Origin: an uncultured Gammaproteobacteria bacterium
Lineage (GTDB): Bacteria; Patescibacteriota; Microgenomatia; Daviesbacterales; UBA10151
Direction: 5' to 3'
Length of the DNA stretch: 64,000 nt
Assembly: GCA_964394855.1 (NCBI GenBank)
Contig: CAYMZD010000004.1
Span: 8,316-72,315, forward strand
Shown: piece by piece, positions 12,494-63,890 of the stretch
Layout: every line of letters begins with the position of its first letter
Position numbering within the stretch: position 1 is the stretch's first letter
The notes under the pieces: model-generated
Told to the model about the DNA's origin: nothing
What the model saw: the letters and a program-made list of their open reading frames with translations, nothing else
Database searches by the model: none
Position numbers and translations under genes: made by a program

Positions 12494-12578
12494 CCCTTCA
12501 ACAAGCTCAGGGTAAACTGAAAGGGGGTGATGAGTTCTGAATAAGCAAATAGGAAAAGTAGTACACTATTATGATAAA

Positions 12579-43147: not shown

Positions 43148-43951
43148 TTACTGAATTTCTGACCACTTTTGCAATGCATCGGCAAAGACGTTCCTTAAAA
43201 TGACCAGATATTTGGGTTCGTAATGAATTTTTTCCGCCGGTTGGGTATTGTCTGTTAGCTGGCGGCGGAATTTAATTGGTTTGGTAGAATCAAGGCTAAT
43301 TAAACTGCCATTGATTAGAAGTTGAGGGGCATTAATATTAGCAGCCGGGCAGCCTCCGGCTTCATAGGCAGTGCAAATTGTACCCTGGGAAATCAAAACT
43401 GCATCAATTCGATCAGCATCCTTACTGATATTAATATCACCCCCAACCACGAAAACTACTCCCGAATTTGGACCACCATAGGTGATATTTTGGTTAATAG
43501 ACAAATTTTCTTTAACAAATACTACTCCGGATTCTCCAGTTCCACTCAAATTAGCGTCAATGTTGAGGTTATTTGGGATAAAATATAGACGGTTTAAGCC
43601 TCCGGTCATGGGAATATTCGACTGGGTACAGGGATTACAGGTTAAAGCGGTTTTATTAAGTGGGGGATCGGAGGGATTGGCCTGGTCATAATAAATGGAT
43701 TTTAAATCATCATAAGTGGGCAGTTTATAAGAAACAAAGGCGGCCTGATCTGTTTCTTTAATACACACAGCCTGGCCATTCACAGTATTGCCAAATTTGG
43801 TAATAGTATCCTTAGCACTAACCAGCCCGGTGGCTCTATCACCAATTTGACAACTACTAGGTTGGGCAAGTATTTGAGAAACGGTTAAAAGAATAAAGAC
43901 TAATCCCCCCATCACAAATAATACATAATGCTTAATGCTAGTTTTTTTCAT
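43148..43951 (-). CDS. Secreted hypothetical protein (N-rich, beta-helix-like)
   Basis: Signal peptide; overlaps the upstream giant protein gene. Confidence 0.4.
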   Translation of the reverse strand: MKKTSIKHYVLFVMGGLVFILLTVSQILAQPSSCQIGDRATGLVSAKDTITKFGNTVNGQAVCIKETDQAAFVSYKLPTYDDLKSIYYDQANPSDPPLNKTALTCNPCTQSNIPMTGGLNRLYFIPNNLNIDANLSGTGESGVVFVKENLSINQNITYGGPNSGVVFVVGGDINISKDADRIDAVLISQGTICTAYEAGGCPAANINAPQLLINGSLISLDSTKPIKFRRQLTDNTQPAEKIHYEPKYLVILRNVFADALQKWSEIQ

Positions 43952-46281
43952 GGTCCTCCCGGAGTATTTATTCTGGTATTAGAATGAACATCACCACCAA
44001 TAGTTTGAATCCATGATTGGACAGGTAGGGTATAACTCCAGCGCAAAGAGGCCCTGGCATCACCCCCGTTTTCATAATAATCAATCTCCACTAAATGGAC
44101 TCCTGCTGTGGCAAAGCTGCGACTGAAAGATCTCTCAAAATAGCCCGTGTCTCTCCAATCATCTAACACAGTTACTCCATCAATTCTCACTCTCACTCCA
44201 TCATCTGCCCCGGCATAAAAGGTATAAGTACCTGCTTTAAAGGTGAAGTTTCCTCTCCATCTGGCAGAAAAGGTATCAGCTCCCACAAAGGAATTAGGCT
44301 GACCTGTTCCCCAATCTTGATTTAAGGCATAAATTGTATCAGGAACAGGGGAGGGTAAAGATACACCATCAGGTGCATTGCCATCAGGGGTATTAAAGTT
44401 CACCCCGTCCCATAAACAGCCTGTCAGCTGATTGGTACCAGGACTGGTGTTGGTACAAGGGGGAGGAGGAATTAAACCAAACCAGCGGTGTTCAGAAACG
44501 CCCGCTGTTAAATTAACAGTGATAGCAGCAGGTTTTATCCAGCCAGCTGGGGCAATAGGATCAACAGTATAACTGCCGGGAGGAATAGCTCCAGTATCAT
44601 AGTAAGGGTCAGGATTACAAAGATTGGGTAGTTTAGTGCCTGACCAAGGCCCGGCAAAGTTAACCCAAGCATTGTCGCTGGTATATCCTCCGCAGGCAGC
44701 AGCTGAATTTCTGATTAATTGTTCTCCTCCATCCCATACTCCATTGCCGTTATCATCCTTCCACAACCTACCCAAAATGTTACCTGGACAAAAAGGCGCG
44801 ATAAAACTGGGACCTACTGTATGCACAGAACCATTCCACAGCCTCCATTGGTAGGTAGTATTGGGATTTAAAGTTAGGCCAGGGTTAAATCCCGCAGGTG
44901 CAGCAGTGGAGGTTTGATTACTAACATTTTTATTGGAGTAGCTGGCAAAACCATTAGTGGAGATGTCAGCCCACAAGGTGGAGTTGGTATTGGTCCAGCT
45001 CAAGGTCACATTAAACGGACCGCTGGCACAGGCGGGAACTCCTGATACCTGTAAGTTAGAAGGAGTGATGTTTTGGGTGGTAAAGTTTTGGGTGGGCGTA
45101 CAAGAGTATCTTGATCGGCCACTTGGTTGAACAGTAAAAGCTAGATTATGTGTACCACTGGTACCGCTTGGGACACAGTTATAGATAAAAGTGGGCCAGG
45201 GATTGGTAATACCTCCCCAGCAATAGTCTGCAGTTGCGCCATCACGATATAGCGCTACATTTGGCCAACCGTTGGGATCAGAGATACCTGTCACACGAGC
45301 TTGAATGGTGGAACTGGGTGGGGGATTGGAATTGGATAAGTTCCAGGAAACACTGCAAGAGCCTGGAGGAGGGGGAGGAGCACTACAGGCCCCGCCACAG
45401 CTGGGATCAGTGGTGGTACCGGCAGCATCATCTCTAATACAAGAACCACTGCTACATCTGTATCTGGCCAGAGGAGCACTACAGGCCCCGCCACAGCTGG
45501 GATCAGTGGTGGTACCGGCAGCATCATCATGAATACAAAGAGAAACGTCACATCGATACCTGTGGGTATGGGAGTAACAGCTAGAAGATGGATCTGAAAT
45601 GGTACTGCAGCTGGTGGAGCATTGAGGATACTGATTAACTGTTGACCAGCCACTCCAGCCGCTCCATCCACCACAATCCGCATTACAGGTTCTGGTTCTT
45701 TGCTGTTGGGTAACTGTTTCAGAACAATAATTTTCTATGCCGGGACAACTCCCACCATTGATAGAAGAATTACAAGAAGTTAAATATTGTGTTTCAGTTT
45801 GAGTTTCTCCACGGGTACAAATACCACAAGCCGGTACTGTTGTGCAGTCATGACTAACGGTATTGACCTCACTTCGTCTAACACACTCACAACTTGAATT
45901 CCAGTAATAGAAATATTGGAAATTACAAACATTATTACCTTTAGGGTTGGGTGTCCATTGCTGGTAAACATTGTTGCAACACCAGTTGCCGCTAAAATTT
46001 GATTCCCGGCATTCAGTAAATGGTGTACATGAAGGAGGTGGTGGAGGTGGATCACAGGCGCTGTCGCGGATGTTACATGAATCCTCCCAACAATAACCAC
46101 TACCATCATCCCATTCATAAACCATTTTACTGTAATAGTCAGCGCAACATTCGGTATAGCTGGGAACACATGATTGAGCATCAACTGACTTAACACTGAA
46201 AAAGAAAAAAACAGTTAACCCCAAAAAGATAAAAATAGCAATTAAAGCTTTAGAAAGGTAGGGCATATACTCATCGTACAA
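43948..46281 (-). CDS. Large secreted Cys-rich surface protein with C-terminal PA14 domain
   Basis: PA14 motif FSARWRGNFTF...GADDGVRVRIDG; many Cys; internal duplicated block ...DDAAGTTTDPSCGGACSAP. Confidence 0.6.
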   Translation of the reverse strand: MYDEYMPYLSKALIAIFIFLGLTVFFFFSVKSVDAQSCVPSYTECCADYYSKMVYEWDDGSGYCWEDSCNIRDSACDPPPPPPSCTPFTECRESNFSGNWCCNNVYQQWTPNPKGNNVCNFQYFYYWNSSCECVRRSEVNTVSHDCTTVPACGICTRGETQTETQYLTSCNSSINGGSCPGIENYCSETVTQQQRTRTCNADCGGWSGWSGWSTVNQYPQCSTSCSTISDPSSSCYSHTHRYRCDVSLCIHDDAAGTTTDPSCGGACSAPLARYRCSSGSCIRDDAAGTTTDPSCGGACSAPPPPPGSCSVSWNLSNSNPPPSSTIQARVTGISDPNGWPNVALYRDGATADYCWGGITNPWPTFIYNCVPSGTSGTHNLAFTVQPSGRSRYSCTPTQNFTTQNITPSNLQVSGVPACASGPFNVTLSWTNTNSTLWADISTNGFASYSNKNVSNQTSTAAPAGFNPGLTLNPNTTYQWRLWNGSVHTVGPSFIAPFCPGNILGRLWKDDNGNGVWDGGEQLIRNSAAACGGYTSDNAWVNFAGPWSGTKLPNLCNPDPYYDTGAIPPGSYTVDPIAPAGWIKPAAITVNLTAGVSEHRWFGLIPPPPCTNTSPGTNQLTGCLWDGVNFNTPDGNAPDGVSLPSPVPDTIYALNQDWGTGQPNSFVGADTFSARWRGNFTFKAGTYTFYAGADDGVRVRIDGVTVLDDWRDTGYFERSFSRSFATAGVHLVEIDYYENGGDARASLRWSYTLPVQSWIQTIGGDVHSNTRINTPGGP
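45378..45569. repeat. In-frame tandem duplication (2 x 96 bp) inside the PA14 surface protein gene
   Basis: gagcactacaggccccgccacagctgggatcagtggtggtaccggcagcatcatc occurs at ~45378 and again at ~45474. Confidence 0.8.
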
Positions 46282-47209: not shown

Positions 47210-47767
47210 TTACTCAACAATATTAAAAGAACTACCAACAAGCTCATTTTTTCTATGGGGAAACACAAAAAAGTCACCATGTAATTTAGTGCTTAAGGGG
47301 ATTTTATCAACAGTAACCTCTGTAAACCGTTTGCCATCTTTATCTGGTATGGCTTCTGGCTTATAAAATTTTGTGCCGTAAATTTCTTTCGAGCTGCCTT
47401 GTACGAAAATAACTATCTTATTTCCTTTATCATCCGAGATAGTGATAGACCCTTCATCCTTGGCCACTAGAGTTCCTACAACTGATCCTCTCCATTCATA
47501 AACCAGGGGGTTTTTAAGGATATCAAAAGCTATGGGGGACTCACTTTCATCAAGAGTTTTTCCTGATAGGCTGGCTGATGGGGTGGAGGTGGGAGTAGCT
47601 GGCTGGAAGGGGTTAGCCAATAAGTTTAGCTTAATACCAAAGTAGTTTAATAAAAAAAGTTCCACTAAAGTTAAAATTACCACCATTACTAAAAGATAAA
47701 ATATTTTTTTACTATAAAAAGGGGAAGGGGACATTAAAATTTGAGGCTTGGGGATATTACCATTCAT
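47210..47767 (-). CDS. Membrane-anchored hypothetical protein
   Basis: Its N-terminus and promoter lie inside direct repeat A; TTGACA-N17-TGATAAT box 6 nt before the ATG. Confidence 0.5.
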   Translation of the reverse strand: MNGNIPKPQILMSPSPFYSKKIFYLLVMVVILTLVELFLLNYFGIKLNLLANPFQPATPTSTPSASLSGKTLDESESPIAFDILKNPLVYEWRGSVVGTLVAKDEGSITISDDKGNKIVIFVQGSSKEIYGTKFYKPEAIPDKDGKRFTEVTVDKIPLSTKLHGDFFVFPHRKNELVGSSFNIVE

Positions 47768-47809
47768 AATTTAATTATCAAATTTTTACGGTTTATTTGT
47801 CAAGTCAAG
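47695..47809. repeat. Direct repeat A (115 bp) bounding the AsnB-like/PqqD-like cassette
   Basis: Near-identical to 49963-50084 (3 mismatches and one 9-bp indel). Confidence 0.85.
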
Positions 47810-47869: not shown

Positions 47870-48019
47870 TTTGAACACAGCAATTAAAGAAATTACTACT
47901 AATGAAGTAATACGAACTGAACCGGACCAGCTTCCTAAGGCAGAGATAATAAAAAGAAAAAGAGGAGCTAGCATGAGAAAGTATAGCTATTATCCAGATG
48001 GGGCAATAACACTTTACTA
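47870..48019 (+). CDS. Candidate 49-aa precursor-like peptide (MNTAIKEITTNEVIRTEPDQLPKAEIIKRKRGASMRKYSYYPDGAITLY)
   Basis: TTG start 6 nt after the strong SD AAGAGGAGGTGAGG. A nested ATG (MRKYSYYPDGAITLY) also has the SD AAGAGGAG. Located immediately upstream of the PqqD-like gene. Coordinates may be off by 1. Confidence 0.3.
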
Positions 48020-48058
48020 GGTTTAAAGTCTAAAACTCTGTGATTTTATCGAAAGTTT

Positions 48059-48346
48059 ATGAACCAAAAATATTGGCTTAATCAGTATTGTGTCTTTTTT
48101 CATCCCAAGTTAGATCAACAAAATAATTTTAATACTATTGTTAGAAATCCCGGTGGCGATTTTATTAAAGTAAATAAAAGCGGTTATTTTATCTTAAAAG
48201 CCATTAATGATAATCCTGGAATAAGTTTAGAAGGTGTCGCTAAGCAGATAAGAGCTACTTTAGATACTTCACAAATGTCCCTTAAAAATATTGAGCAGTT
48301 TGTAAGTTCAATGATGATTGGCGGTGTGATTGAAATCAATGAATAA
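48059..48346 (+). CDS. PqqD-like RiPP recognition element protein
   Basis: Size 95 aa; GDFIKVNKSGYFILKAINDNPGISLEGVAKQI is typical of PqqD/RRE; overlaps the next gene. Confidence 0.6.
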   Translation: MNQKYWLNQYCVFFHPKLDQQNNFNTIVRNPGGDFIKVNKSGYFILKAINDNPGISLEGVAKQIRATLDTSQMSLKNIEQFVSSMMIGGVIEINE

Positions 48347-49928
48347 ACATTTATTAATCCAAATAGACAAAAATAGCTGGAAATTAGATATAAATTTGCC
48401 CGATAGAAAGATACCGAGGAGTTTTAGGTTAGACCGAAATGGTTATATTTGTTTGGGATATTTTATTAGTTGGGAAGAGGATCTAACAGATCAGCAGATT
48501 TTTCAGTATTGTAAAGACAGAGACTTTGAAACGTTAGCCAATTTAACCGCCGATTTTTTAATAATATTTATCGATCAAAGTAATAAAAAAGTAACTGTAC
48601 TTAACAGCCAAACAGGAACCTTTCCATGTTATTTTGCTTTCATAGAGGACAATTTAATTATCTCAACCTCGTTTTACGAGATTAAAAAAAGGTTAAAATA
48701 TCTAACTTTAAATTTAAATCAAGCCTTTGATTATTTTATATTTGAATTTTTCAATTTTCCACAAGATGAAACGATATTAGAGGAGATAAACCAGGTTCCG
48801 CCAGCGGCGCTATTAGAAGTTAAACCGACTTTCGAATATAGAATTAGTTCTTTACTAAAGTACAGAGAATTTTATGGAGAAGGGGTTACACCTCTGGAAT
48901 CAACTGAAGATTTTACTAATCAAGTTGCTACTTTAATAGAAATAATCACTCGGGAACGCTTGACAAGACTTAAACAATTTTCTAAGGCTGGTGAATTAAG
49001 CTCTGGCTATGATAGTGGATTAGTAGCCTCCGCGATTGCTAATATAGATCCCCAAAGTGCTCAATTTTATACTTGGAATTCAGAGTTGGATCAACTTGAT
49101 AGCGATCCCGCTGTTGTAAAAAAGTTCGCTTTAAAACATGAATTAAAAGTTAATTTTTGGGAGAAAGATGCCTACTTTCCTTTTGCGGCAGAAGAAGACT
49201 TGAAGCTATCGGAAGATAATTTTTATCCAGCGACATTTGCTCAAAATTTAATTTTAGAATTCTACAAGTATCTTTCAGCGGAGGACAAAGAGGTTGTTTT
49301 TAACGGAACTGGAGGAGATGAAATTTATATGGTACATGAAATGGATGATTTATATCCATATTTTGTTCATCTTGATTATTTTGATACTGTTAGAGCTCTA
49401 GATTGGGATATAGATAGGATATTAACTTCAAAAGGTATAGATATTTTGATGGATAGAGATCGTTTTTCGAAAAGAAATCTCTATCCTGTGATTTTATCTA
49501 CGTCATCATTGGAAAAAAATTATTTCCCAATTTATTGGGAATATAATCTTTGGCCAGTATCTCCTTTAACAGATCCTAGATTAATTAAATTAGCTCGTAG
49601 AATGCCTAAAAAAGATCCAGAGCAATTGCGGAAAGAGCATATCTGGAAACACAGAACAGATATTTTCCTGCCCGAGCAACTAAAGCCCAAGCATAGATTT
49701 GGAACTTTAAATTTTGTTAAACAATATGTTAAAAAGAGAAAAGATTTTATTATTGAGGTACTTAGAAATTCAGTCTTGGCTAAAAAAGGTTTAATTAAGG
49801 CAGATGAAATTATAAAAAATCTACAAGAGGACAAATTTGATTTATATTCTGACAAAAATAATTTGTTTTTCCATAATGTAATTAGGCTTGAATATTTTAT
49901 CCAAAAAAATTTAGTTAAAGTTTTGTGA
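48330..49928 (+). CDS. Asparagine-synthetase-B-like amidotransferase without the N-terminal Cys nucleophile (lasso-cyclase-like)
   Basis: PP-loop SSGYDSGLVASAI (compare SGGLDSS); N-terminus MKSMNK lacks Cys2; TTG start; 532 aa. Confidence 0.7.
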   Translation: MKSMNKHLLIQIDKNSWKLDINLPDRKIPRSFRLDRNGYICLGYFISWEEDLTDQQIFQYCKDRDFETLANLTADFLIIFIDQSNKKVTVLNSQTGTFPCYFAFIEDNLIISTSFYEIKKRLKYLTLNLNQAFDYFIFEFFNFPQDETILEEINQVPPAALLEVKPTFEYRISSLLKYREFYGEGVTPLESTEDFTNQVATLIEIITRERLTRLKQFSKAGELSSGYDSGLVASAIANIDPQSAQFYTWNSELDQLDSDPAVVKKFALKHELKVNFWEKDAYFPFAAEEDLKLSEDNFYPATFAQNLILEFYKYLSAEDKEVVFNGTGGDEIYMVHEMDDLYPYFVHLDYFDTVRALDWDIDRILTSKGIDILMDRDRFSKRNLYPVILSTSSLEKNYFPIYWEYNLWPVSPLTDPRLIKLARRMPKKDPEQLRKEHIWKHRTDIFLPEQLKPKHRFGTLNFVKQYVKKRKDFIIEVLRNSVLAKKGLIKADEIIKNLQEDKFDLYSDKNNLFFHNVIRLEYFIQKNLVKVL

Positions 49929-49962
49929 TGTTGGTATGTGATTATTTTGCTAAAATAATCAG

Positions 49963-50084
49963 ATAAAATATTTTTTTACTATAAAAATATAAAAAGGGGA
50001 AGGGGACATTAAAATTTGAGGCTTGGGGATATTACCATCCATAATTTAATTATCAAATTTTTACGCTTTATTTGTCAAGTCAAG
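49963..50084. repeat. Direct repeat B, with a truncated 27-codon copy of the 47767 gene N-terminus on the minus strand
   Basis: Minus strand reads MDGNIPKPQILMSPSPFYIFIVKKYFI-stop. Confidence 0.85.
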
Positions 50085-50190
50085 GAAATTGACAAGCATG
50101 ATAGTTTTTGTTATATTCTTATTCATTCTGTCATTTTGTACAAATACAGTTTAGCCTTCTTTGTCTGGTCAATCAGACCATGGCGGAGGA

Positions 50191-50880
50191 TTAGCTCCGA
50201 TAACTAATATATTCACGAGCATTAATATCTAATCCTGAATCTAATATATATTTTTCTTGAGCGAAATCCTTAATTAAAACGGCTATTTTTTCAGGTAGAA
50301 TTCCTTGAAAATTTTTCATTTGGGTAGCAACTCCTCCAGATATGAAATTATATATTTTTAAAGTGGGAGTTTCCTTTGCCAAAGCTTGAGTAAAACCTCG
50401 CACACCCCATTTTGAAGCTCCATAAACTGATTGTTTTTCATATCCTCCTATACTGGCAGCACTTCCCATATTTATAATCATGTCTTGAATATATGGTAAG
50501 CAAGCAATAGTCATTTTAATCAATCCCTCCAAGTTAACTCTTAATTGATTTTCAACTTCATTATTAGTATGTTCTCTCGCCATTTTCCAAAAAATTACTC
50601 CGGAGTTATTAATTAAGATAGATATTTTTCCTAATTGTTTTATTATTTTAGCAACCGTCCTTTTTATAGAATCATTATTTGTGAGATCTAAATATAATAA
50701 CAAAACTTTAGGAGACCCCAATTCTAGGCACCTTCTTTTTACTAACTCTCCTTCTTTATATCCCTTATAATAAGTTAAAATCAGTATACTTTTTTGTTTG
50801 GCAAATTCATAAGCACATTCTTTCCCGATACCACGACTTGCTCCAGTTATAAACACAACTCTATTTTCTAAAGAATACAT
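50191..50880 (-). CDS. Short-chain dehydrogenase/reductase
   Basis: TGASRGIG cofactor site; YxxxK. Confidence 0.85.
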   Translation of the reverse strand: MYSLENRVVFITGASRGIGKECAYEFAKQKSILILTYYKGYKEGELVKRRCLELGSPKVLLLYLDLTNNDSIKRTVAKIIKQLGKISILINNSGVIFWKMAREHTNNEVENQLRVNLEGLIKMTIACLPYIQDMIINMGSAASIGGYEKQSVYGASKWGVRGFTQALAKETPTLKIYNFISGGVATQMKNFQGILPEKIAVLIKDFAQEKYILDSGLDINAREYISYRS

Positions 50881-50910
50881 ATCACTTCTTTCATATCAAC
50901 TTTATTAATA

Positions 50911-52155
50911 TTATCTTCTTGTTACAAAATCTAAAAATTGAGCATTAATTTTGGCTGGTGAAAATTTATCTAAGGTAATTGTTTGGGCTAATTCAGATAA
51001 GTACTGTCGGTATCGAGAAGGTGCAGAAATAAGATCTTTAATTTTTTGGGCTAACTGATAATAACCAATTTCATTTGGCTCTTGGGCTAGAAAACCAGCT
51101 TCACCAAATTGAGATATAGCCTCTCCTGATCCCCGTGAATTAAAGCCCATTAAAGGTAGCCCATGACTAGCAGCTTCGGTAAATACTAAACTTAGACCTT
51201 CTATGGTTGATGGCTGAAAGAAGAGATCAGCGTTTGTATATGCCTTACATAAAAAATCACCATCTGGAATACATCCTCTTAAATCAAACTGGCAATGAGA
51301 GAAACTTTTATTTAATTCTTCAGTTTGTTGAGAAAACCATTGACCATATGGATTATTAAGATCGCCCACAACAACGAACTTTGCTAGACTATCACTACCT
51401 TTCAATATACGGTCTAGCATAACCGCAAGTTCCAATAATCTACCAGTACCTTTTTTAGCAGTAATACGACCTACACTTAAAATTGTATATTCGTTAGTAT
51501 CAGTTTTTCTTTGCTGGGGACATTTATGGCAAAATTCTCCAACTGGTGGAATAACTATCCATTCAGCGGGAGTATCTTTAGGAAAAACATTATCGAATGA
51601 GGATTTGATCGAATATGAATTAAATATAGCTGATGTATTTGTTATTCCTCTTTGAGATAACATCATATTTCTAAGGTGATATAAGGGGTGCGAAAGTAGA
51701 TAGATATAATAGTCCACCAAAGATGCGGAATCGACATCAGAAAGTCCTATGTCTAATGGACAATTCCATACGACAGTAGTTTTTCGTTTTTGCTTAGGTA
51801 TTAATCGATCGTAGACACTCATACCTATCATATCAGGGCTATATATTACTATATTACCCATGCTTTGCTGAACTAAAGAAGATAACTTTCGTTTAGAAGC
51901 TGGGGTAGGCAGTTTTTCAAGAATTGGTATGCTCGCTATGGTATGGAGAGGCTCATAAGCTAAAGAAGGATAAGGTGATGGAGGGTGAACTAAAGATTTT
52001 CGTCTTTTGATTGGATAAGCCCATATTACTTCTTGATTGCCTTGACTTGCGGCAAATTCCGCGAATGAAGCAACTGTTCGTTGTATACCTCCTGTAGTAT
52101 TTGGGGCATATTCAGATGTAAGTAGCAGGCTATTTTTCGCTTCTTCCTTTAGCAT
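50911..52155 (-). CDS. GT4-like glycosyltransferase
   Basis: C-terminal GT-B region with FTEAASHGLPLMGF. Confidence 0.7.
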   Translation of the reverse strand: MLKEEAKNSLLLTSEYAPNTTGGIQRTVASFAEFAASQGNQEVIWAYPIKRRKSLVHPPSPYPSLAYEPLHTIASIPILEKLPTPASKRKLSSLVQQSMGNIVIYSPDMIGMSVYDRLIPKQKRKTTVVWNCPLDIGLSDVDSASLVDYYIYLLSHPLYHLRNMMLSQRGITNTSAIFNSYSIKSSFDNVFPKDTPAEWIVIPPVGEFCHKCPQQRKTDTNEYTILSVGRITAKKGTGRLLELAVMLDRILKGSDSLAKFVVVGDLNNPYGQWFSQQTEELNKSFSHCQFDLRGCIPDGDFLCKAYTNADLFFQPSTIEGLSLVFTEAASHGLPLMGFNSRGSGEAISQFGEAGFLAQEPNEIGYYQLAQKIKDLISAPSRYRQYLSELAQTITLDKFSPAKINAQFLDFVTRR

Positions 52156-52682
52156 TATATTTTAAATGTTTTTGTTGTTAATTGGTTTTTTATAAGAAAA
52201 AATAATAGCCACGCTAAAGTTAAAGGATTTTTTAGTTGATTAAGTAATTCAGACCATTTATTGATGAAGTCAAGTCGAATGATTATTTTATTATTAAATG
52301 CAAGAAAATCGTTTATTTTTTTTGTATCATATAATGAAATAGGAGTAGGTAAATTATAAAAATTAGCCCATTTAATATTCCTCACTTCTGAAGATTCCTT
52401 TAGTGTAGTGGGGTTAATTAGTTGCCCAGAGAATAAATATTTCTTTATATTACCATTTTTAGCATAATACTTGGCAATTAAATTAACTTTTTTTATCTTT
52501 ATTCCAGTTTCTTCATAAAGTTCTCTTAAAGCTGCAACTTTAGGAGATTCTTTTTTATTAATATGCCCTCCAGGGATAACCCAGAAAGGAACGTCTTGTC
52601 TCTGGGTTAAAAGAATTCTTCCTTCTCTATTGATAATAATTGTATGAACACTTTGATCCTTATAAGTATTTTGCTGTCTCAT
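52155..52682 (-). CDS. NUDIX hydrolase
   Basis: Nudix box GGHINKKESPKVAALRELYEETGI. Confidence 0.8.
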   Translation of the reverse strand: MRQQNTYKDQSVHTIIINREGRILLTQRQDVPFWVIPGGHINKKESPKVAALRELYEETGIKIKKVNLIAKYYAKNGNIKKYLFSGQLINPTTLKESSEVRNIKWANFYNLPTPISLYDTKKINDFLAFNNKIIIRLDFINKWSELLNQLKNPLTLAWLLFFLIKNQLTTKTFKI

Positions 52683-53841
52683 TTATTGTCTTGCTAAAAT
52701 AGTAAAAGTATTTTAACAGATCTTTGTTAGTTATTTCTAAAAAAAGGGTTTCATAATCAAGCTCTCTTTTTAATATTTTTAATTTAAAGTTGAACTCTTG
52801 GTTACGGCACAAGCGGTCTTTAGAAATAGTTATTTTTCTAGACTTATTTTTTGGATGAGTAAAAATCAGATCAGGTAATCTTGAGCAGTAGTAGTCTGAA
52901 CAATATAAGCTTAACAGGAGAGCCTTCAACTTTCTTTCCATCTTGGAAAAGTTGTACTTATTAATTGTACTCTGTAATGCACTATTGCTCCATTTATAAT
53001 CTTCTTCATGCCCCACATGGACTTTGGTTAAATTTAGTACAGGAATGTTTGATTCACCTTGAAAGTAATCGTCCAGAAAGCAATCATTTATTCCTTCTTT
53101 TATTAAGGAGTCTTGCAATAACTTCCACCTCGTGATTGATGAAACATCATTCTTGTTATTTTTTGTATAAGCATTTAAGACAAGTGCTTCTAAGTCAATT
53201 CGAGCTAATAAAGCTTTACCTTCTGCAAATTTTGAATAATTTTCTTTAATTGCAGAGATCACAGTGTCTATAGTGGTATCTTCCCTTAAATATTGATGGA
53301 AACAATCGCGGTATTCAAACTTACGTCGAGATAAATATGCTTTGATACTATGTTGCTGATTAGTAATATTAAAAATTGGTGGATACTTTTCCCATGATAA
53401 GTTATCAATCTTAATACGTGTTTCACCTAGTATAATTCCATCCCAGACTTTAGTTATTTCTGTGAGTATTTTTTTAGGAAACAGATCTGCTTCAGATGAA
53501 TAGCCGATATTGGTTAGCTTGTCTTTACTAATTAAATCATTAATAATCTGCTTACCTAGCTTTGCTTCAAGTAAGAACTTAGAGGGGAAACATTGAGGAA
53601 TAGTATGAGTATGAAATGGTAAAAGAAACTTTATTTTGGGATGATTAATTAGTTGGTAAAAACATTCAGGATTCCAAGCTTTCAAAAGTAATAAATCTTC
53701 AGTGCAAATTGAAACTGTTGAATTAATAACTAAGGAATTTAAAATTAATGGAAGATACTTTTCTATATAAAGAGTCCGCTGGGAAAATGATAATGAAAGA
53801 TGGTTAAAATTAATATGGTAAAGAACGGATAGATTAATCAT
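52660..53841 (-). CDS. Hypothetical protein (393 aa), possibly a carbohydrate-active fold
   Basis: Operon member with an overlapping start/stop; HTHTIP motif. Confidence 0.4.
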   Translation of the reverse strand: MINLSVLYHINFNHLSLSFSQRTLYIEKYLPLILNSLVINSTVSICTEDLLLLKAWNPECFYQLINHPKIKFLLPFHTHTIPQCFPSKFLLEAKLGKQIINDLISKDKLTNIGYSSEADLFPKKILTEITKVWDGIILGETRIKIDNLSWEKYPPIFNITNQQHSIKAYLSRRKFEYRDCFHQYLREDTTIDTVISAIKENYSKFAEGKALLARIDLEALVLNAYTKNNKNDVSSITRWKLLQDSLIKEGINDCFLDDYFQGESNIPVLNLTKVHVGHEEDYKWSNSALQSTINKYNFSKMERKLKALLLSLYCSDYYCSRLPDLIFTHPKNKSRKITISKDRLCRNQEFNFKLKILKRELDYETLFLEITNKDLLKYFYYFSKTINETAKYL

Positions 53842-54865
53842 GAGTTAATAATTGTTGCACTAAGTTTTTTTGTTTATATTCTGCCCATTTTTGAAACCAT
53901 GAAAGATCTTGTGGAGAAACTACTTCTGCTAGTTGAGCAATTGAGTCTCGGTAACAGTCAGCAATTCTTGCTAATGTGTTTCGTAGAACATTACTTTTTG
54001 TAACTAATTCATTAATTACCATTGAATCGGTCGGTGTAATTGTTCCTTTTCCAAAGAATGCTAATAGGGTACTTCTATCAGTAGGAGATAGCAAATTATA
54101 TAGATAGGATAAAGGTATGGTTGGTACACCTCGTCGAATGTCACTAAATGAACGACCATAAAGGTCCCCATCTGTAAAGTCTTTCAGGTCATTGATTAAT
54201 TGTCCTCCTTGATTAAATAATCTTAGACCAGAGATTGCTAATTTAAATTTTTGATCTTCTTGTGATTCTGTCCACATCGCACTTAGCTGAAATGTTCCGT
54301 GAAAATCACATCTATTTTCGTAGTTACGCGTAATTATTCCTACTGGTGTTTCTAAATCCATAAGTCGATGTTCCCTAAGTGATCTAAGTCCGATCTGAAT
54401 ATATCTTGTACATGAGCTTGCAACAGTAGAGTTACCAACTTTTTCTGTTAAGTATTCTAATAATTTTTTAGTTCCATTTAAGGCTGCTGCAAGGGTTTGC
54501 TGTTTACCAAATTTTACCCAGCAGGTTTGAAGGTTACCTCGCATTGTGTCCTCATCTTCAATATCATCAAACATTAAAGAAATTGCCCAAAGCATATCTG
54601 CGGAGACTGCTAATGGTTTTCGGATATCACTATTTATTCCTAAATTTTTGCCCAGTACTTCAACAAATAGTCCTTTTTCTTTATGTACATGGGTAACAAA
54701 ACTGTGGTGTATGGGAATTGCTGTTTCGGGTTCAAGTCGACCTAGAAACTCTTGAGTTAGGAATAAAAGTCCTCGGTTTTTCCATTCCTCAAAAACTGAT
54801 AAAACAGTTGGGGCATTAATTCTTGCGTAAATTGCAGTGTCTAATTCAGGGATCATAAAAGTCAT
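53834..54865 (-). CDS. Isoprenoid synthase-like protein (class I terpenoid synthase/prenyltransferase fold)
   Basis: First Asp-rich motif LMFDDIEDEDTMRGN; second acidic cluster NDLKDFTDGD. Confidence 0.45.
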   Translation of the reverse strand: MTFMIPELDTAIYARINAPTVLSVFEEWKNRGLLFLTQEFLGRLEPETAIPIHHSFVTHVHKEKGLFVEVLGKNLGINSDIRKPLAVSADMLWAISLMFDDIEDEDTMRGNLQTCWVKFGKQQTLAAALNGTKKLLEYLTEKVGNSTVASSCTRYIQIGLRSLREHRLMDLETPVGIITRNYENRCDFHGTFQLSAMWTESQEDQKFKLAISGLRLFNQGGQLINDLKDFTDGDLYGRSFSDIRRGVPTIPLSYLYNLLSPTDRSTLLAFFGKGTITPTDSMVINELVTKSNVLRNTLARIADCYRDSIAQLAEVVSPQDLSWFQKWAEYKQKNLVQQLLTHD

Positions 54866-54954
54866 TATATCAATCTATATCAGTACTTACCAACTTTATA
54901 AGAATTTTAACGAATATGAATAGGTAAATTACAAAGTTTTTTTAAGTAAATGAT

Positions 54955-55383
54955 TTATTCAAAAGCTTTATCTATGACTTCTTGTGATAAATACTTCCAA
55001 GATAATCTGGGATCAGTATAGTGTCTGGCTCTTTGAATTTTATCGTTCTTTATTTCAAATACTCCAACTATCGGAGTTCTAAATTTTTGGCCGGTTAATT
55101 CATCAATATAGCTTTCTACCCACTCAACTATTACTATACCTTTTTCCTCATCAGCTAAGATATTTTTAAACTGATACTCTCTGCCTTTAATTTGATAAAC
55201 TTTTTTGATGTTTTCTTCAACTGCCTTACCAGAAATAGTAGGAAAGGGCTGATCATTTTTATCTAAATACATTTCAATAACCTGATAGTTAGGGCTAATT
55301 AAGTTTAGCCCCTTTTTAGTATTACCCTCTTGTTCAGCTCTAAAAGAGTCCAGTACTAATTGAATCAATTGTTGTTTGTTCAT
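54955..55383 (-). CDS. SnoaL/NTF2-like protein
   Basis: Size 142 aa and a fold-typical pattern (limonene-epoxide-hydrolase/SnoaL-like). Confidence 0.5.
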   Translation of the reverse strand: MNKQQLIQLVLDSFRAEQEGNTKKGLNLISPNYQVIEMYLDKNDQPFPTISGKAVEENIKKVYQIKGREYQFKNILADEEKGIVIVEWVESYIDELTGQKFRTPIVGVFEIKNDKIQRARHYTDPRLSWKYLSQEVIDKAFE

Positions 55384-55461
55384 TAAATTAAGTTTATTGT
55401 TTAATTTTGCTTAAAGCAAATGAAGTTAAATTATTTCTTGAATTTAAGTCAAGATCTAATA

Positions 55462-56082
55462 TCAGCCAAATAACTGATCTAAACTTTTCTTTAGCAGTTT
55501 AATATTCTCTTTGTTCTTGGCTCTAGTAAAAAGAGTATTAAAATTTTTATAATAAGACTTAGCTTTTTCTAGTTTATTCTCTTCAAAATAAAAGTAGGTT
55601 AAATTAAAATAAATACTAATTTTTTCATCTAAATTTTTAGCTAATTTTTTAGCCTCCAGATAATAATTTTCTGCCTGTTTTGTTTCACCAATTCTTCTAT
55701 AAGCATTACCCAAATTTAAGCTAGATTGGTATCTATCTAGTCCTAGATTGCGAGCTTTTTGGTAAGATTTTATAGCTTTAAGGCCAGATTTAAGGTTTTG
55801 AAGATCTGTTTGGTGGTGATAAACATGCCCTAAATATGAATGGGTGATAGGATCTTTACTGCTCAACTTCAAAGATCTACTTAGATAATTAATCGCTTTA
55901 TTTTGCAAAAGCAACCTTTTCTTACCAGGAGACATAGCTGCTTTTTGATCATATAAAAGCCCCAATAAATTTAAAATTTGAGGTAGATTTTTTGAATATT
56001 CATTAAGTAACTTTTCTGCCTCATCATATTTTTGATTTGATATTAAATCTTTTATTTTTTCAAGATTTTTATCATCATTCAT
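55462..56082 (-). CDS. TPR-repeat protein
   Basis: Repeated A/Y/L TPR pattern. Confidence 0.7.
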   Translation of the reverse strand: MNDDKNLEKIKDLISNQKYDEAEKLLNEYSKNLPQILNLLGLLYDQKAAMSPGKKRLLLQNKAINYLSRSLKLSSKDPITHSYLGHVYHHQTDLQNLKSGLKAIKSYQKARNLGLDRYQSSLNLGNAYRRIGETKQAENYYLEAKKLAKNLDEKISIYFNLTYFYFEENKLEKAKSYYKNFNTLFTRAKNKENIKLLKKSLDQLFG

Positions 56083-56164: not shown

Positions 56165-56764
56165 TTGTATGGTAGAATCATGACTATGATTAAATTAAAT
56201 GCTAAACAGCTGCGAGGGGGTCCCACTTCGCTAAAGCTTCGCGGACTAAAGTCAAAAGTCAAACATAATGAGATATATATTGTTTTGGATAATGTCTTGG
56301 ATACATATAATATTGGCTCTATTTTCAGATTGGCAGATGCCGTTTCTGCCAAAAAGATCTATCTTTGTGGGGAAACTGCCACCCCTCCTAATCATCGGAT
56401 TAAAAAAGCCTCCATTAATACCACCGAATGGGTAGAGTGGGAATATTGCGAATCTGCGGTAGAGGCAATATCTAAGATCACCTCCGAGGTGAAAAAAATG
56501 CGATTACACCTCGGAGGTGGAGGATCAATACAAATTATAGCAATAGAACAGAGCCCTAAATCAATCCATTATAACAAATTTGAGTACAAATTGCCTATAT
56601 GTTTGGTAGTAGGACATGAAACAAATGGAGTATCCAAAGAAGTGCTGGAAAAAGTGGATGGGATAGTGGAACTGCCCATGTTTGGGATAAATAAATCCTT
56701 AAATGTTATGGTTTCTTTGGGAATAGTGCTTTACAAGGTACTGGAAAAAAAGTTAGATTTGTGA
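56165..56764 (+). CDS. SpoU/TrmH-class RNA 2'-O-methyltransferase
   Basis: Motifs NIGSIFRLADA and LVVGHETNGVS...SLNVMVSLGIVLY. Confidence 0.8.
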   Translation: MYGRIMTMIKLNAKQLRGGPTSLKLRGLKSKVKHNEIYIVLDNVLDTYNIGSIFRLADAVSAKKIYLCGETATPPNHRIKKASINTTEWVEWEYCESAVEAISKITSEVKKMRLHLGGGGSIQIIAIEQSPKSIHYNKFEYKLPICLVVGHETNGVSKEVLEKVDGIVELPMFGINKSLNVMVSLGIVLYKVLEKKLDL

Positions 56765-56770: not shown

Positions 56771-58162
56771 GTGCCCAAGATGTTCGGAGAAAAAGATTCC
56801 GAAGAAGTGCTCTTTCCTTATAGAAAAATTTATTATCAACTTAAAGAAGGTATTTATTTCGTTCCCGGAGTCAAAGGAACTGCAATCTGTGATACTACCA
56901 CCGGTAATGTTTATAGCATCAACGAAGCTGGTAAAAGAGCTCTCTTGGGGCAACAAGAAGAACCTGATTACCTACAACAACTAAAAGAGCTTGGCCTTGT
57001 CGATGGCCAACCACAGCCGATTGAACTACAAAAACCTAAATTCGCTCTTGATTTTGTCTGGTTTGAACTAACTGAAGATTGTAATGAACGTTGTGCCCAC
57101 TGTTATGCCAACAGCATGCCGCCAAGATTGCGTAGACTTCTACCTATGGCTCAAACTACAGGATACGAAACAAATGGTCGGGTTAAACTGACTGCAGAAA
57201 GGTGGCGCGAGTTAATCCGCGAATCATACGATCTGGGTTGCCGTGAGTGTCAGTTTATTGGCGGCGAACCATTTTTCTGGCATGGTGAAAATAAAGAAAC
57301 TATGCTTGATTTGGCAACTTATGCTAAGGGGATGGGTTATCTTTCAATAGAGATTTTTACCAATGCCACACTGATTCATCCAGAAGACATTCAAAGGATT
57401 AAGGAGTTAGATTTGCATATTGCGGTTTCTCTCTACTCTGACGATGAAGAGGTTCACGACACTATTACCAAAACACCCGGCAGTTTTGCCAGAACCACGC
57501 AGGCTCTTGAACGGCTCAAAGAAGCTGGCGTCCAAACCCGTGTTGAGACTGTACTCATGCGTCCCAATCAACACACTGTTGAAAGCACCAACCAATTTAT
57601 CCAACAAATGGGTTTTAACCATCGCTCACCGGATGTTTTGCGACCCAAAGGACGCGGTGACAATCTTGAACTTATACCAGATCCGGAATCACTTGTTAAA
57701 TATGGTTTAATTCTGGGACCGGATTTTTCTGCTTCGCCTGATTTTTTCCAGAGAAGCGTAGATGGACATAACTGTTTGGCTGGAAAAATTACCATAACTG
57801 ATAATGGAAACGTATTACCCTGTATTTTCTCAAGAGAGCAAATTGTAGGAAATGTTAGACAGAAATCACTTGAGGAAGTACTTGAAGATAAAATCCAACA
57901 AATTTGGGGTTTAACCAAAGATGATGTTTTGGTTTGTCAGGATTGCCAGTATCGTTACGTTTGTTTTGATTGTCGCCCGCTTTCTGAAGGCGCTACCAGT
58001 GGTAACGGGAAATACGCAAGCGCTCCTTATCCCCGCTGTACCCACAACCCCTATGAGGATCGTTGGGGTAACGGAACTTGGAAGCTGGATGGAAACGGCC
58101 AACCATATTACGATGAAACATTAAAACCAATTATAGAAAAAGTAAGAAGTGAGGGGAGGTGA
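56771..58162 (+). CDS. Radical SAM / SPASM-domain peptide maturase with N-terminal RRE-like domain
   Basis: Motif CNERCAHC (CxxxCxxC); a C-terminal Cys cluster (CLAGK...LPC...CQDCQYRYVCFDCRP); about 100 aa of PqqD-like N-terminal extension. Confidence 0.85.
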   Translation: MPKMFGEKDSEEVLFPYRKIYYQLKEGIYFVPGVKGTAICDTTTGNVYSINEAGKRALLGQQEEPDYLQQLKELGLVDGQPQPIELQKPKFALDFVWFELTEDCNERCAHCYANSMPPRLRRLLPMAQTTGYETNGRVKLTAERWRELIRESYDLGCRECQFIGGEPFFWHGENKETMLDLATYAKGMGYLSIEIFTNATLIHPEDIQRIKELDLHIAVSLYSDDEEVHDTITKTPGSFARTTQALERLKEAGVQTRVETVLMRPNQHTVESTNQFIQQMGFNHRSPDVLRPKGRGDNLELIPDPESLVKYGLILGPDFSASPDFFQRSVDGHNCLAGKITITDNGNVLPCIFSREQIVGNVRQKSLEEVLEDKIQQIWGLTKDDVLVCQDCQYRYVCFDCRPLSEGATSGNGKYASAPYPRCTHNPYEDRWGNGTWKLDGNGQPYYDETLKPIIEKVRSEGR

Positions 58163-60880: not shown

Positions 60881-60974
60881 GGTGAGCGAAGTCGTACATT
60901 CGATAAACTCAGTACGACACTGAGTACAATCGAAGTGTCGAACCATTGACTCCGAAGAAGTGGTGGGAGATTCT

Positions 60975-62461
<1,487 letters not shown>

Positions 62462-62675
62462 TGGAGTATTTGATTAAACTTTATGATTTCTTAAATCCCG
62501 AGCGATCCCGAGTTTATCGAGGGAGAGTAGAAGGAAAGATAGCAGGAGTTTAATCCATGTTCAATCTCACGATTGGACGAGCCCCGTAGATGGCGGGGCG
62601 AAAAGCGCTGATAATACGCTGTTCCAATAAGTCAATTTGGAATAATTACTATCCCCACCACTTCTTTGGAGTTAA

Positions 62676-62708
62676 GAAAAAACCCCCATTTATCTGGGGG
62701 TTTTTTTG
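62676..62708 (+). terminator. Rho-independent terminator after the 16S trailer
   Basis: aaaaaa-ccccc-atttatct-ggggg-ttttttt. Confidence 0.65.
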
Positions 62709-62728
62709 TGCTAAAATTTACCTTGTCT

Positions 62729-62801
62729 GGCCACGTACCCAAGTAGCTAAGGGAACGGTCTGCAAAACCGTGATTCGTCGGTGCAAGTCCGATCGTGGCC
62801 T
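62729..62801 (+). tRNA. Putative tRNA-Cys(GCA), atypical
   Basis: Acceptor GGCCACG/CGTGGCC, anticodon stem ACGGT/ACCGT, loop CTGCAAA, U73. The D-arm has 3 bp and lacks GG, and the T-loop reads TGCAAGT. Confidence 0.45.
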
Positions 62802-62817
62802 CCCAAGCAAATAACAT

Positions 62818-62892
62818 GGGCATTTAGTTCAGCGGTAGAACGCTTCTCTGATAAAGAAGAGGTGGATGGTTCAACTCCATCAGTGCCCACCA
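62818..62892 (+). tRNA. tRNA-Ile(GAU)
   Basis: Acceptor GGGCATT/AGTGCCC, loop CTGATAA, T-arm GATGG-TTCAACT-CCATC, A73, CCA encoded. Confidence 0.85.
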
Positions 62893-63890
62893 TGAACGTT
62901 GTTTCTGCCCAATTTGTTAAGGATAAAAAAGTTTTGCTTCGTTTGGATCTTGATGTCTCTATTGAAGATGGCAAAGTAACAGAAGATTTTAGGTTAAAAG
63001 CTGCACTATCCAACCTTAATTTATGTCTTCAAAATGCGCCGGAGGTTATCATAATGGGTCATATTGGCAGGCCCACCTTTGCCGAGGCTACGGTGGGCAA
63101 GCCTTCGGTTGCTCCCATTTGGGATTGGCTGGTGGAGCAAGGATATGGTGCGGTGCTGAAAAGTGGCAAATTAAAGTTACTGGAAAATTTAAGATTTGAA
63201 CCTGGTGAAGATTCTAGGGACTTAGATTATGCCAAAGAGCTAGCTTCGTATGGAGAATTTTATGTCAATGAGGCTTTTGCCGCTTATCACCCCAGTGCCT
63301 CCACCACTATTTTACCCACCCTTTTGCCTCACGCAGCAGGACTTCACTTTGCCAAGGAGGTGGAGAAATTAACTAAAGTCCATGCCAACCCCAAAAGACC
63401 ACTGGTAGTGATAATTGGCGGAGTTAAGGCAGAAGACAAATTGCCAGCAATTTCGGCCATGGCTAAAATTGCTGATACGGTTTTGGTAGGGGGAAAAATA
63501 ATTTCTGAAACTCATCTAATTGGTCAAATTAGCCCCAATATATTAGTAGGGAAATTAAATGTGGGGGGGGATGATATATCGGTAGAAACAATAAGTTTAT
63601 GGAAGTCAGTGATTAAAAGTGCAGGTATGGTGGTGTGGAATGGACCCTTGGGTAAAATTGACAATGGACAATTGACAATGGACACTTTGGGAAGTGCTAA
63701 AGGTACATCTGAAATAGCTAGGGCTGTTATAGAATCAGGAGCAGAAAGTATTGTTGGCGGCGGGGATACAATTAGCCTATTAGACCAATTAGACTTATTG
63801 GACAAATTTGATTTTGTTTCTGTGGGCGGTGGAGCCATGCTGAAGTTTTTAGCAGAAGGAACTTTACCCACTATTGAAGCCTTGACTTAA
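62892..63890 (+). CDS. pgk: Phosphoglycerate kinase (compact form, 332 aa)
   Basis: Motifs GHIGRP, LLENLRFEPGE, YVNEAFAAYH and FVSVGGGAML; the ATG overlaps the last A of the tRNA-Ile CCA. Confidence 0.85.
   Translation: MNVVSAQFVKDKKVLLRLDLDVSIEDGKVTEDFRLKAALSNLNLCLQNAPEVIIMGHIGRPTFAEATVGKPSVAPIWDWLVEQGYGAVLKSGKLKLLENLRFEPGEDSRDLDYAKELASYGEFYVNEAFAAYHPSASTTILPTLLPHAAGLHFAKEVEKLTKVHANPKRPLVVIIGGVKAEDKLPAISAMAKIADTVLVGGKIISETHLIGQISPNILVGKLNVGGDDISVETISLWKSVIKSAGMVVWNGPLGKIDNGQLTMDTLGSAKGTSEIARAVIESGAESIVGGGDTISLLDQLDLLDKFDFVSVGGGAMLKFLAEGTLPTIEALT

Follow-up and report, generated by a model that had tools for sequence, protein, structure and literature searches.

Bacteria of the candidate phyla radiation (CPR) have minimal biosynthetic capacity and an envelope chemistry that is almost unknown. 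A string of seven minus-strand genes at positions 50191-56082 of a 64,000-nucleotide stretch of contig CAYMZD010000004.1 (the whole stretch is called the window below) raises the question of what an isoprenoid-synthase-like protein does in the company of a NUDIX hydrolase, a glycosyltransferase and an oxidoreductase. We approached this question from the order of the genes, the folds of their proteins, the conserved motifs, the co-occurrence and rarity of the genes and the low-GC island in which they lie. These observations point to a rare accessory module restricted to the CPR in which a prenyltransferase-like (PT-like) protein and a barrel protein resembling glycoside hydrolase family 57 (GH57-like) are the central pair. 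We favor a role in glycolipid metabolism, the glycolipid being either a prenylated (amino)sugar or an isoprenoid glycoside, and assign this reading a probability of roughly 0.38. A terpenoid- or glycolipid-type pathway had been suggested in a preliminary description of the DNA and is still the best guess, the chemistry being inferred only.

The string comprises the following open reading frames (ORFs):

55462-56082, minus strand: tetratricopeptide-repeat (TPR) protein of 206 aa, with Pfam matches to TPR_12, TPR_1 and TPR_2

54955-55383, minus strand: SnoaL/NTF2-like protein of 142 aa, with Pfam matches below cutoff

53834-54865, minus strand: PT-like (isoprenoid-synthase-like) protein of 343 aa, PF00348 with 41.1 bits

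52660-53841, minus strand: GH57-like (β/α)7-barrel protein of 393 aa by predicted structure, earlier called hypothetical

52155-52682, minus strand: NUDIX hydrolase of 175 aa, PF00293 with 67 bits

50911-52155, minus strand: highly divergent retaining GT4 glycosyltransferase of 414 aa, PF00534 with 57.6 bits

50191-50880, minus strand: classical short-chain dehydrogenase/reductase (SDR) of 229 aa, PF00106 (adh_short) with 132 bits

The ORF list contains these seven genes at exactly the coordinates given in the preliminary description, and its TPR, NUDIX, GT4, SDR and isoprenoid-synthase-like (PF00348) assignments are borne out by the Pfam scores. Chance ORFs are excluded because the frames are long for DNA with 30% GC, have conserved homologues and keep their synteny on other contigs. 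The start of the GH57-like gene lies over the stop of the PT-like gene with an overlap of 8 nt, and the two form a translationally coupled pair. The GH57-like and NUDIX genes overlap by 23 nt and the NUDIX and GT4 genes by 1 nt, while gaps of 30 nt (GT4/SDR), 78 nt (TPR/SnoaL-like) and 89 nt (SnoaL-like/PT-like) separate the others. A promoter and terminator scan of the AT-rich locus gave no excess over the shuffled expectation.

To see which of these genes belong together, homologue contexts were fetched and all loci (L numbers below) were rescanned with family hidden Markov models. In 14 of the 16 distinct loci, all but L011 and L019, the GH57-like gene has the PT-like gene within one gene of it, and these 14 all come from CPR-type metagenomes. 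The adjacency persists down to identities of ~23% for the GH57-like and ~28% for the PT-like protein. The order from PT-like to SDR gene is the same in L002, L006 and L007, which supports the probable operon of the preliminary description for this part of the string. A diphosphatase is encoded in 13 of the 14 PT-like/GH57-like loci, as a NUDIX of the type found in the PT-like, GH57-like and NUDIX trio, as another NUDIX (L022) or as a YfcE-type Metallophos protein (L012, L021). Because this enzyme is swapped between non-homologous families, hydrolysis of a P-O-P or phosphoester bond is arguably an obligatory step. The arrangements were, in the order of the genes:

PT-like, GH57-like, trio-type NUDIX: the window, L001, L002, L006, L007, L008/L013, L009, L010/L014 and L015

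GH57-like, NUDIX: fragments L016 and L017

GT4 and SDR orthologues next, as in the window: L002, L006 and L007

GT4 orthologue (36% identity) and methyltransferase, divergently transcribed: L009

UbiE-like methyltransferase next: L001 and L005

YfcE-type metallophosphoesterase, PT-like, BshB-like PIG-L deacetylase, GH57-like: L021, on 24 contigs

NUDIX, PT-like, PIG-L, GH57-like: L022

PT-like, PIG-L, GH57-like: L020

PIG-L, fusion of GH57-like with a nucleotidyltransferase-like domain, metallophosphoesterase, PT-like adjoining: L012

The seven genes are not one unit of equal standing. The overlapping PT-like, GH57-like and NUDIX genes are the conserved core, the GT4 and SDR genes extend it in this lineage, and the TPR and SnoaL-like genes are additions of local standing. 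No account of a PT-like/GH57-like/Nudix module came up in literature searches.

What the PT-like protein does is the central point. Its PF00348 score lies above the Pfam cutoff of 27, and its AlphaFold2 model (pLDDT 91.9) matches deca-, octa- and solanesyl-diphosphate synthases in Foldseek with TM-scores of 0.72-0.80 at identities of 14-17%. Model, Foldseek and Pfam match all show the all-α isoprenoid synthase fold, and the structure comparison that had been proposed for the 343-aa protein thus identified the trans-isoprenyl diphosphate synthase (trans-IPPS) fold. The preliminary description had also noted DDxxD-type motifs, of which the first is present (DDIED, aa 100-104) and the second is not (NDLKD, aa 225-229). 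The first aspartate-rich motif (FARM) reads DDIEDEDTMRG (aa 100-110, nt 54536-54568) and is invariant in the family as DDIEDxDxxRG, with D97, D98 and D101 (numbering of protein P0001) unchanged in 13 homologues. At the place of the second motif (SARM) the canonical FQxxDDxxD is replaced by the pseudo-SARM GQLINDLKD (aa 221-229, nt 54179-54205), the N of which is invariant in 13 of 13 close homologues and present also in L012, L021 and L022. The basic residues that bind isopentenyl diphosphate (IPP) and diphosphate (GKRxR, RRG, KT, GK...GKxT) are missing as judged by alignment alone, not by structure superposition. HVHKEKG (aa 59-65; family form HKEKG) stands where GKRxR is expected, the family-invariant RCDFHG (aa 185-190) takes the place of the KT region, and across the family RRG has become xRG and GKxT has become GVPT. 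In an hhalign comparison with a canonical octaprenyl diphosphate synthase, GKRLR was paired with EKGLF, RR with MR and GKTT with GVPT. The distant PT-like proteins of L012, L021 and L022 (27-34% identity) retain HKEK, RxDxFH and NDxxD.

A FARM combined with a pseudo-SARM of the form NDxxx or GDxxx characterizes ComQ-type all-α prenyltransferases, and the PT-like protein has this combination with QLINDLKD. ComQ needs NDxxx in its pseudo-SARM, and changing the N to D sharply lowers Trp prenylation (PMC5331326). In StheQ the motif is Q212...N215-D216-x-x-D219 and no metal is bound there (preprint 10.64898/2026.08.29.745113), and in Ord1 and XiaM the same fold transfers a prenyl group to a non-IPP acceptor, indole (PMC12510300). 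With ComQ, StheQ, PalQ, Ord1 and XiaM the PT-like protein shares the all-α fold and an intact FARM for the prenyl diphosphate donor; as in the ComQ-type enzymes, its second motif has degenerated to NDxx(D) with Q at −3 and the machinery for IPP elongation is lost. Since its pseudo-SARM is QxxNDxxD, as in the ComQ family, we infer from the sequence that it does not elongate chains but either transfers a prenyl group to an acceptor other than IPP or catalyzes an irregular coupling. Unlike ComQ-type systems, the PT-like locus has no precursor-peptide gene or indole pathway; conserved alongside it are a barrel of the GH57-like kind, a diphosphatase and enzymes for the tailoring of sugars, and the protein has invariant motifs of its own, HKEK and RxDxFH. 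A grouping in sequence with ComQ or Ord1 was not seen among the top PDB sequence and fold matches or the NCBIfam matches, the best PDB matches being canonical synthases.

The form of the pseudo-SARM, which is that of StheQ and ComQ, raises the possibility that the PT-like protein is a ComQ/PalQ-type peptide (Trp) prenyltransferase acting on a ribosomally synthesized and post-translationally modified peptide (RiPP), with the GT4 enzyme glycosylating the peptide of the lasso-like or the radical SAM (rSAM)/SPASM module that flank the string in the window. The lasso-like pair lies within the same low-GC island, and rSAM genes occur near the module in L001, L002 and L004. We nevertheless consider this improbable. 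The other loci, more than 10 in number, are all without a lasso-like pair, a short precursor ORF after the PT-like gene or a conserved RiPP enzyme. An adjoining gene for a Trp-containing, ComX-like precursor was not found in the loci, the gene after PT-like always being GH57-like or PIG-L, and neither of the two candidate peptides encoded by small ORFs of the window contains Trp. The flanking RiPP-like modules, which the preliminary description had linked to the string, accompany the module in no other locus, and a repeat around the lasso-like module suggests that the latter arrived separately.

With IspA, IspB and GGPPS (PF00348) the PT-like protein has in common the fold, the FARM DDxxD...RG, a Q ahead of the second motif and the above-threshold Pfam score. 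It differs from them by its low identity of 14-17% and by replacement of GKRxR, RRG, KT, DDxxD and GKxT altogether. The proximity of its structure to medium- and long-chain synthases, its NCBI label ("polyprenyl synthetase family protein"), its score above the PF00348 gathering threshold and the lack of another isoprenyl diphosphate synthase in the window would suit a housekeeping polyprenyl diphosphate synthase that supplies a lipid carrier next to envelope glycan genes. The rarity and the composition of the locus make this very unlikely. About 16 sequences form an isolated clade with at least 299 bits to the profile, and the next sequence, a canonical octaprenyl diphosphate synthase, scores 42 bits; taken with the NDxxD motif and the loss of GKRxR, RRG and KT, this sets the protein apart from ordinary synthases of the octaprenyl or undecaprenyl type, a distinction the preliminary description had left open. 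The partner GH57-like gene occurs in 3 of 185,579 species genomes (one genome per species), labelled WWE3, Patescibacteria and, for one metagenome-assembled genome (MAG), Gammaproteobacteria, with none labelled Daviesbacteria, and a profile search with its family found 51 representatives among 1.84 billion proteins. A locus universal in the lineage, the other outcome foreseen, is thus not what we found. A metagenome scan added few loci. In addition, the string lies in a low-GC island, and mobile-element genes stand beside the module in L005, L008 and L009.

The 393-aa protein encoded next to PT-like had been called hypothetical, and it turns out to be a key partner in the module. It has no Pfam match, searches of the PDB with GH57-like sequence profiles gave no match, and only 7 close homologues were found among 5.8 billion proteins. 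Its AlphaFold2 model (pLDDT 86.2, pTM 0.88) shows seven barrel strands followed by C-terminal helices, and the best Foldseek match in the PDB is the GH57 4-α-glucanotransferase 1k1w (E=1.5e-7), followed by a maltose-forming amylase, amylopullulanases and a branching enzyme (GH57, to E=1e-3) and then by GH38 α-mannosidases. The defining features of GH57 are a (β/α)7-barrel accompanied by a helix bundle, a nucleophilic Glu at β4 and, as proton donor, an Asp at β7 (PMC6037648). The model has this architecture, and by position it has both residues: E117 (motif YSSEADL, nt 53482-53502) directly follows the fourth barrel strand (109-114), and D216, with E218 (motif RIDLEAL, nt 53182-53202), directly follows the last (210-215). 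E117, D216, E218, N11, H14, H79, S315 and D316 are invariant in 28 GH57-like members with identities down to 16%, and E117 and D216/E218 align with the E and D-x-E of the PF03065 protein P0065 with an hhalign probability of 84%. Further resemblances are CSDYYC (aa 314-319), similar to conserved sequence region (CSR) 5 of GH57, and a CSR-1-like HxNxNH motif in the family. Distant members match Pfam GH57 (P0043 with 6e-7, P0065 with 1e-22), and P0038 bears the UniRef name "GH57 N-terminal domain-containing protein". One family member, P0080, is from Aenigmarchaeota.

Placed by model and residue position, the protein would represent a new GH57-like family with a complete catalytic Glu/Asp pair. 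It shares with GH57 enzymes the barrel followed by helices, the Glu after β4, the D-x-E after the last strand and the CSR-1- and CSR-5-like motifs. It differs from them in lacking C-terminal domains (TMt 0.3-0.4), the CSR-2 Glu and any Pfam or PDB sequence match; membership by sequence, that is, by PF03065 and the five CSRs, was accordingly not found for the window protein. Coupling to a PT-like gene is not known for GH57.

The best structural matches, which are α-glucan-active GH57 enzymes, suggest another possibility, namely that the module handles α-glucans or oligosaccharides in a pathway like those of glycogen or methylglucose polysaccharides, with GT4 as glucan synthase, the GH57-like protein for branching or transfer, NUDIX as an NDP-glucose pyrophosphatase, the methyltransferase as sugar methylase and PT-like as supplier of a lipid anchor or as a non-catalytic partner. 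The set of GH57, GT4 and methyltransferase genes, with an acetyltransferase in L001, recalls the mycobacterial methylglucose lipopolysaccharide (MGLP) locus. We regard such a pathway as slightly less probable even than peptide tailoring, since the invariant partner is PT-like and not GT4, the variants with PIG-L point to N-acetylhexosamine (HexNAc) rather than to glucose, and the sequence membership and C-terminal domains of GH57 are missing.

The third core protein contains an intact Nudix box GX5EX7REUXEEXGU, GHINKKESPKVAALRELYEETGI, within aa 38-61, and orthologues follow the GH57-like gene in at least 9 loci. Dephosphorylation of prenyl diphosphates by a Nudix enzyme is the basis of the plant NUDX1-type geraniol route. 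Here too a NUDIX protein is coupled to an isoprenoid-fold enzyme, and Arabidopsis NUDX1 structures are among the PDB matches. In the window NUDIX no substrate-specific signature is evident, and a C-terminal hydrophobic tail is peculiar to its family. A substrate assignment from motifs and PDB neighbours was rejected, the matches being generic for MutT-like proteins. The tail (aa 152-175, nt 52158-52229) ends in FKI, is conserved in 8 orthologues with the trio-type consensus …NPLTFxWLLFFLIKNQLTTKTFKI and is absent from the L022 NUDIX. The end FK[IL]/FR[VI] is common to the window, L001, L002 and L006-L010, and a classical transmembrane helix would need a longer segment. The tail may anchor the enzyme in the membrane or dock it on a partner protein.

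The GT4 protein matches, besides PF00534 (Glycos_transf_1), PF13692 with 47.7 bits and carries the EX7E motif as EGLSLVFTE (aa 319-327); its best PDB sequence match reaches only E=2e-4. Orthologues occupy the same position in L002, L006 and L007 and, as listed for L009, stand in divergent orientation there. The SDR has the motifs TGASRGIG, NNSG and YGASK of a classical SDR, and its orthologues follow GT4 in L002 (partial), L006 and L007. Together with the other variable partners, these genes are of a kind that serves sugar or small-molecule tailoring: GT4 (the window, L002, L006, L007, L009), PIG-L of the GlcNAc type (L020-L022, L012), a UbiE-like methyltransferase (L001, L005, L009) and SDR.

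In the mycothiol, bacillithiol, glycosylphosphatidylinositol (GPI) and 2-deoxystreptamine aminoglycoside pathways, GlcNAc transfer by a GT4 enzyme is followed by PIG-L deacetylation. GT4 and BshB-like PIG-L are recurrent accessory partners of the window-type module as well. Unlike in mycothiol- or bacillithiol-type pathways, no module has so far shown the two together, a Cys ligase or cyclitol synthase is lacking, and the aglycone of the module product would be an isoprenoid. In L012 the GH57-like domain of the protein P0034 (871-2748) is fused on its C-terminal side to a nucleotidyltransferase-like region of the Pol-β type (PF18765, E=0.005); since this fusion is flanked by genes for PIG-L and a YfcE-type phosphoesterase, it hints at nucleotide-linked intermediates. 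Two neighbourhoods were recorded as well. An aminosugar-type cluster in L002 (1-6891) encodes an rSAM protein, a MshA/BshA-like GT4, an rSAM/SPASM protein, a UDP-GlcNAc-3-dehydrogenase-like protein, a PseC-like aminotransferase and a PIG-L-like protein, and a DNA methyltransferase gene separates it from the module. Upstream of the PT-like gene in L004, a Patescibacteria MAG, lie genes for an LpxC-like deacetylase (136 bits, cutoff 187) and a MoaA/viperin-like rSAM protein (3720-5676); the former is unexpected in a lineage without lipid A.

A set with a PIG-L deacetylase, a GH57-like barrel and a diphosphatase could also serve the salvage or catabolism of lipid-linked sugars, in which scavenged carriers of the polyprenyl-PP-α-GlcNAc type are dismantled: PIG-L would deacetylate, the GH57-like protein would free the α-linked sugar, NUDIX or the metallophosphoesterase would cleave the diphosphate, and PT-like would bind or re-extend the polyprenyl diphosphate. 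The CPR lifestyle relies on scavenging, PT-like keeps the prenyl diphosphate-binding FARM and has lost the elongation residues, the NUDIX bears a hydrophobic tail, and no glycosyltransferase occurs in the operons of the type metallophosphoesterase/PT-like/PIG-L/GH57-like in L021 and L022. Still, we give this explanation no better odds than tailoring of a peptide. The GT4, methyltransferase and SDR partners look biosynthetic, the module is much too rare for a general salvage route, and no uptake system is present.

The small size, rarity and mobile look of the module, with toxin-antitoxin and integrase genes nearby, could further indicate a role in defence or conflict, with a modified nucleotide or nucleotide-sugar being produced or broken down. 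The NUDIX matches the PADLOC candidate PDC-S07 (E=8e-12), GT4 has a weak match to PF20706, "GT4-conflict" (28.9 bits), and MoaA/viperin-like rSAM genes lie near the module in L001 and L004. We rate a defence role as low as that of a housekeeping synthase. The NUDIX match is generic and the sole one, PADLOC matching none of the other six proteins (PT-like, GH57-like, GT4 and SDR included), so that this assignment was rejected; and collections of phages, plasmids and viral contigs do not contain the module. For PF20706 the published contexts are STAND NTPases, TRADD-N and similar (PMC8195603). Such contexts are absent here and the score lies below the generic GT4 scores, for which reason a conflict-system GT4 was likewise rejected.

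In the favored reading of a module for a prenylated (amino)sugar or isoprenoid glycoside, PT-like would bind a prenyl diphosphate via the intact FARM/Mg2+ site and, with its IPP/second-metal site remodelled to QxxNDxxD, would transfer the prenyl group to a non-IPP acceptor or couple irregularly, with no chain elongation. The acceptor or product would be carbohydrate-derived, and the Glu/Asp pair of the GH57-like protein would make or break an α-glycosyl bond on it. This is suggested by the invariant GH57-like partner and by the GT4, GlcNAc-type deacetylase, methyltransferase, SDR and nucleotidyltransferase-like partners. NUDIX, or the metallophosphoesterase in its stead, would cleave a P-O-P bond in a nucleotide-sugar or prenyl diphosphate, and the hydrophobic tail may place the NUDIX at the membrane or on a partner protein. 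GT4 would add a hexose or HexNAc, the SDR would perform redox tailoring, and a small product, either a prenylated (amino)sugar or a glycoside of an isoprenoid, would result.

Several observations weigh against this proposal. The NDxxD signature is documented best for peptide (Trp) and indole acceptors, not for sugars, and to our knowledge no trans-IPPS-fold enzyme prenylates a carbohydrate. Only 2 of the 28 GH57-like family members reach PF03065 and the window protein stays below the Pfam threshold, so that the substrate could be a non-glycoside. Two GH57-like clades, represented by L011 and L019, occur without PT-like, and GT4 and SDR are absent from many loci. No transporter or flippase is present. 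Finally, precursor pathways are often absent from CPR genomes, and the 64-kb window shows no source of prenyl diphosphate; a second isoprenyl diphosphate synthase was not found in it.

A bolder and doubtful version, to which we give about the same small weight as to salvage, takes PT-like and the GH57-like protein as a system in which, for the first time, the trans-IPPS fold would serve to prenylate a carbohydrate, for example UDP-GlcNAc or GlcN-1-P. The route would parallel the early (Raetz) steps to lipid A in isoprenoid form and lead to a CPR-unique glycolipid of the prenyl-glucosamine type. Prenyl transfer would then correspond to LpxA, N-deacetylation would be carried out by PIG-L or an LpxC-like enzyme, cleavage of the UDP-sugar pyrophosphate by NUDIX or the YfcE-type phosphoesterase would correspond to LpxH, and the GH57-like enzyme would perform glycosyl transfer.

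The two genes at the upstream end of the string have a different status. The 142-aa protein remains below the cutoffs of SnoaL_2 (22.9 bits, cutoff 27) and LEH (21.6 bits, cutoff 24), and its gene recurs only in L006, where the locus is 88% and the SnoaL-like protein 85% identical. No TPR homologue occurs in any other fetched locus. At the level of the module, the inclusion of both genes in the operon is therefore not upheld: the SnoaL-like gene is a lineage-specific add-on, and the TPR gene is co-directional without a conserved link to the module.

The base composition of the surroundings was examined as well. The preliminary description had drawn an island at 47.7-59.3 kb; a low-GC island does exist, with the smaller extent of 48.06-56.08 kb:

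48059-56082, no strand: low-GC island of nine genes, the PqqD-like/Asn-synthase-like pair and the seven-gene string

Its GC content is 31.2%, with 22.6% at third codon positions (GC3), compared to 40.2±3.1% and 34.5±3.9% in the 49 other ORFs of the window (Mann-Whitney p≈5e-6). A SpoU-family RNA methylase gene (56165-56764, plus strand, PF00588 with 107 bits, GC 38%) lies between the operon and the rSAM/SPASM gene (56771-58162, GC 42.7%). As both are host-like in GC, one contiguous island over 47.7-59.3 kb was rejected, and the operon and the two peptide-modification modules are not a single compositional island. In most other loci the GC of the module equals that of its flanks, deviating only in the window, L010 and L022, and low module GC was for this reason rejected as general evidence of horizontal transfer. 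The agreement with the flanks elsewhere fits a CPR-internal module that was acquired here fairly recently. The idea that the module is foreign to the CPR is not sustained either, as most named homologues are labelled with CPR taxa (Daviesbacteria, WWE3, Patescibacteria). The window itself belongs to a Candidatus Daviesbacteria (CPR/Patescibacteria) contig if one goes by NCBI's names for the identical proteins. In L005, L008, L009 and L022 the module has integrase, recombinase and toxin-antitoxin genes beside it. Relatives of the GH57-like protein were not found in phage, plasmid or viral-contig collections, and relatives of PT-like were not found in viral contigs.

A direct repeat of 116-124 bp with 98% identity (47694-47809 and 49961-50084) brackets the PqqD-like/Asn-synthase-like (lasso-like) pair, so that this pair and the seven-gene string probably came in separately. 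Duplicated in the repeat are the promoter region and roughly 25 codons from the start of a 185-aa gene (47210-47767), and it has the look of a junction left by an insertion or duplication. A 49-aa ORF (47873-48022, plus strand) that lies closely upstream of the PqqD-like gene and is preceded by AGGAGG encodes a candidate precursor peptide, MNTAIKEITTNEVIRTEPDQLPKAEIIKRKRGASMRKYSYYPDGAITLY, with no Trp and no obvious Asp or Glu at core positions 7-9 as a lasso peptide would have. A probable surface adhesin is encoded just outside the island (43948-46281, minus strand); this Cys-rich protein of 777 aa combines linkers rich in proline with duplicated repeats that contain Cys and ends in a PA14 domain. 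Elsewhere in the window tRNA-Cys(GCA) and tRNA-Ile(GAU) come after the 16S rRNA gene (60973-62892), the usual pair being Ile/Ala; an ORF at 62781-63890 overlaps the tRNA region, and a tRNA-Ile with anticodon UAU lies at 12423-12495.

What sets the locus apart is that a putative transferase with a non-canonical IPPS fold and a new GH57-like family would together found a cluster of the isoprenoid-glycoside type. The genomic pattern is solid, and it is unusual for the CPR. With only 3-5 genes, the module is directly testable by heterologous expression. If the proposed reading is true, the acceptor range of IPPS-fold prenyltransferases would be widened past IPP, indoles and peptides, and a new glycoside-hydrolase-like family would be defined. 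For the organisms themselves it would mean a lineage-specific isoprenoid-sugar metabolite, possibly one that acts at the host-symbiont interface.

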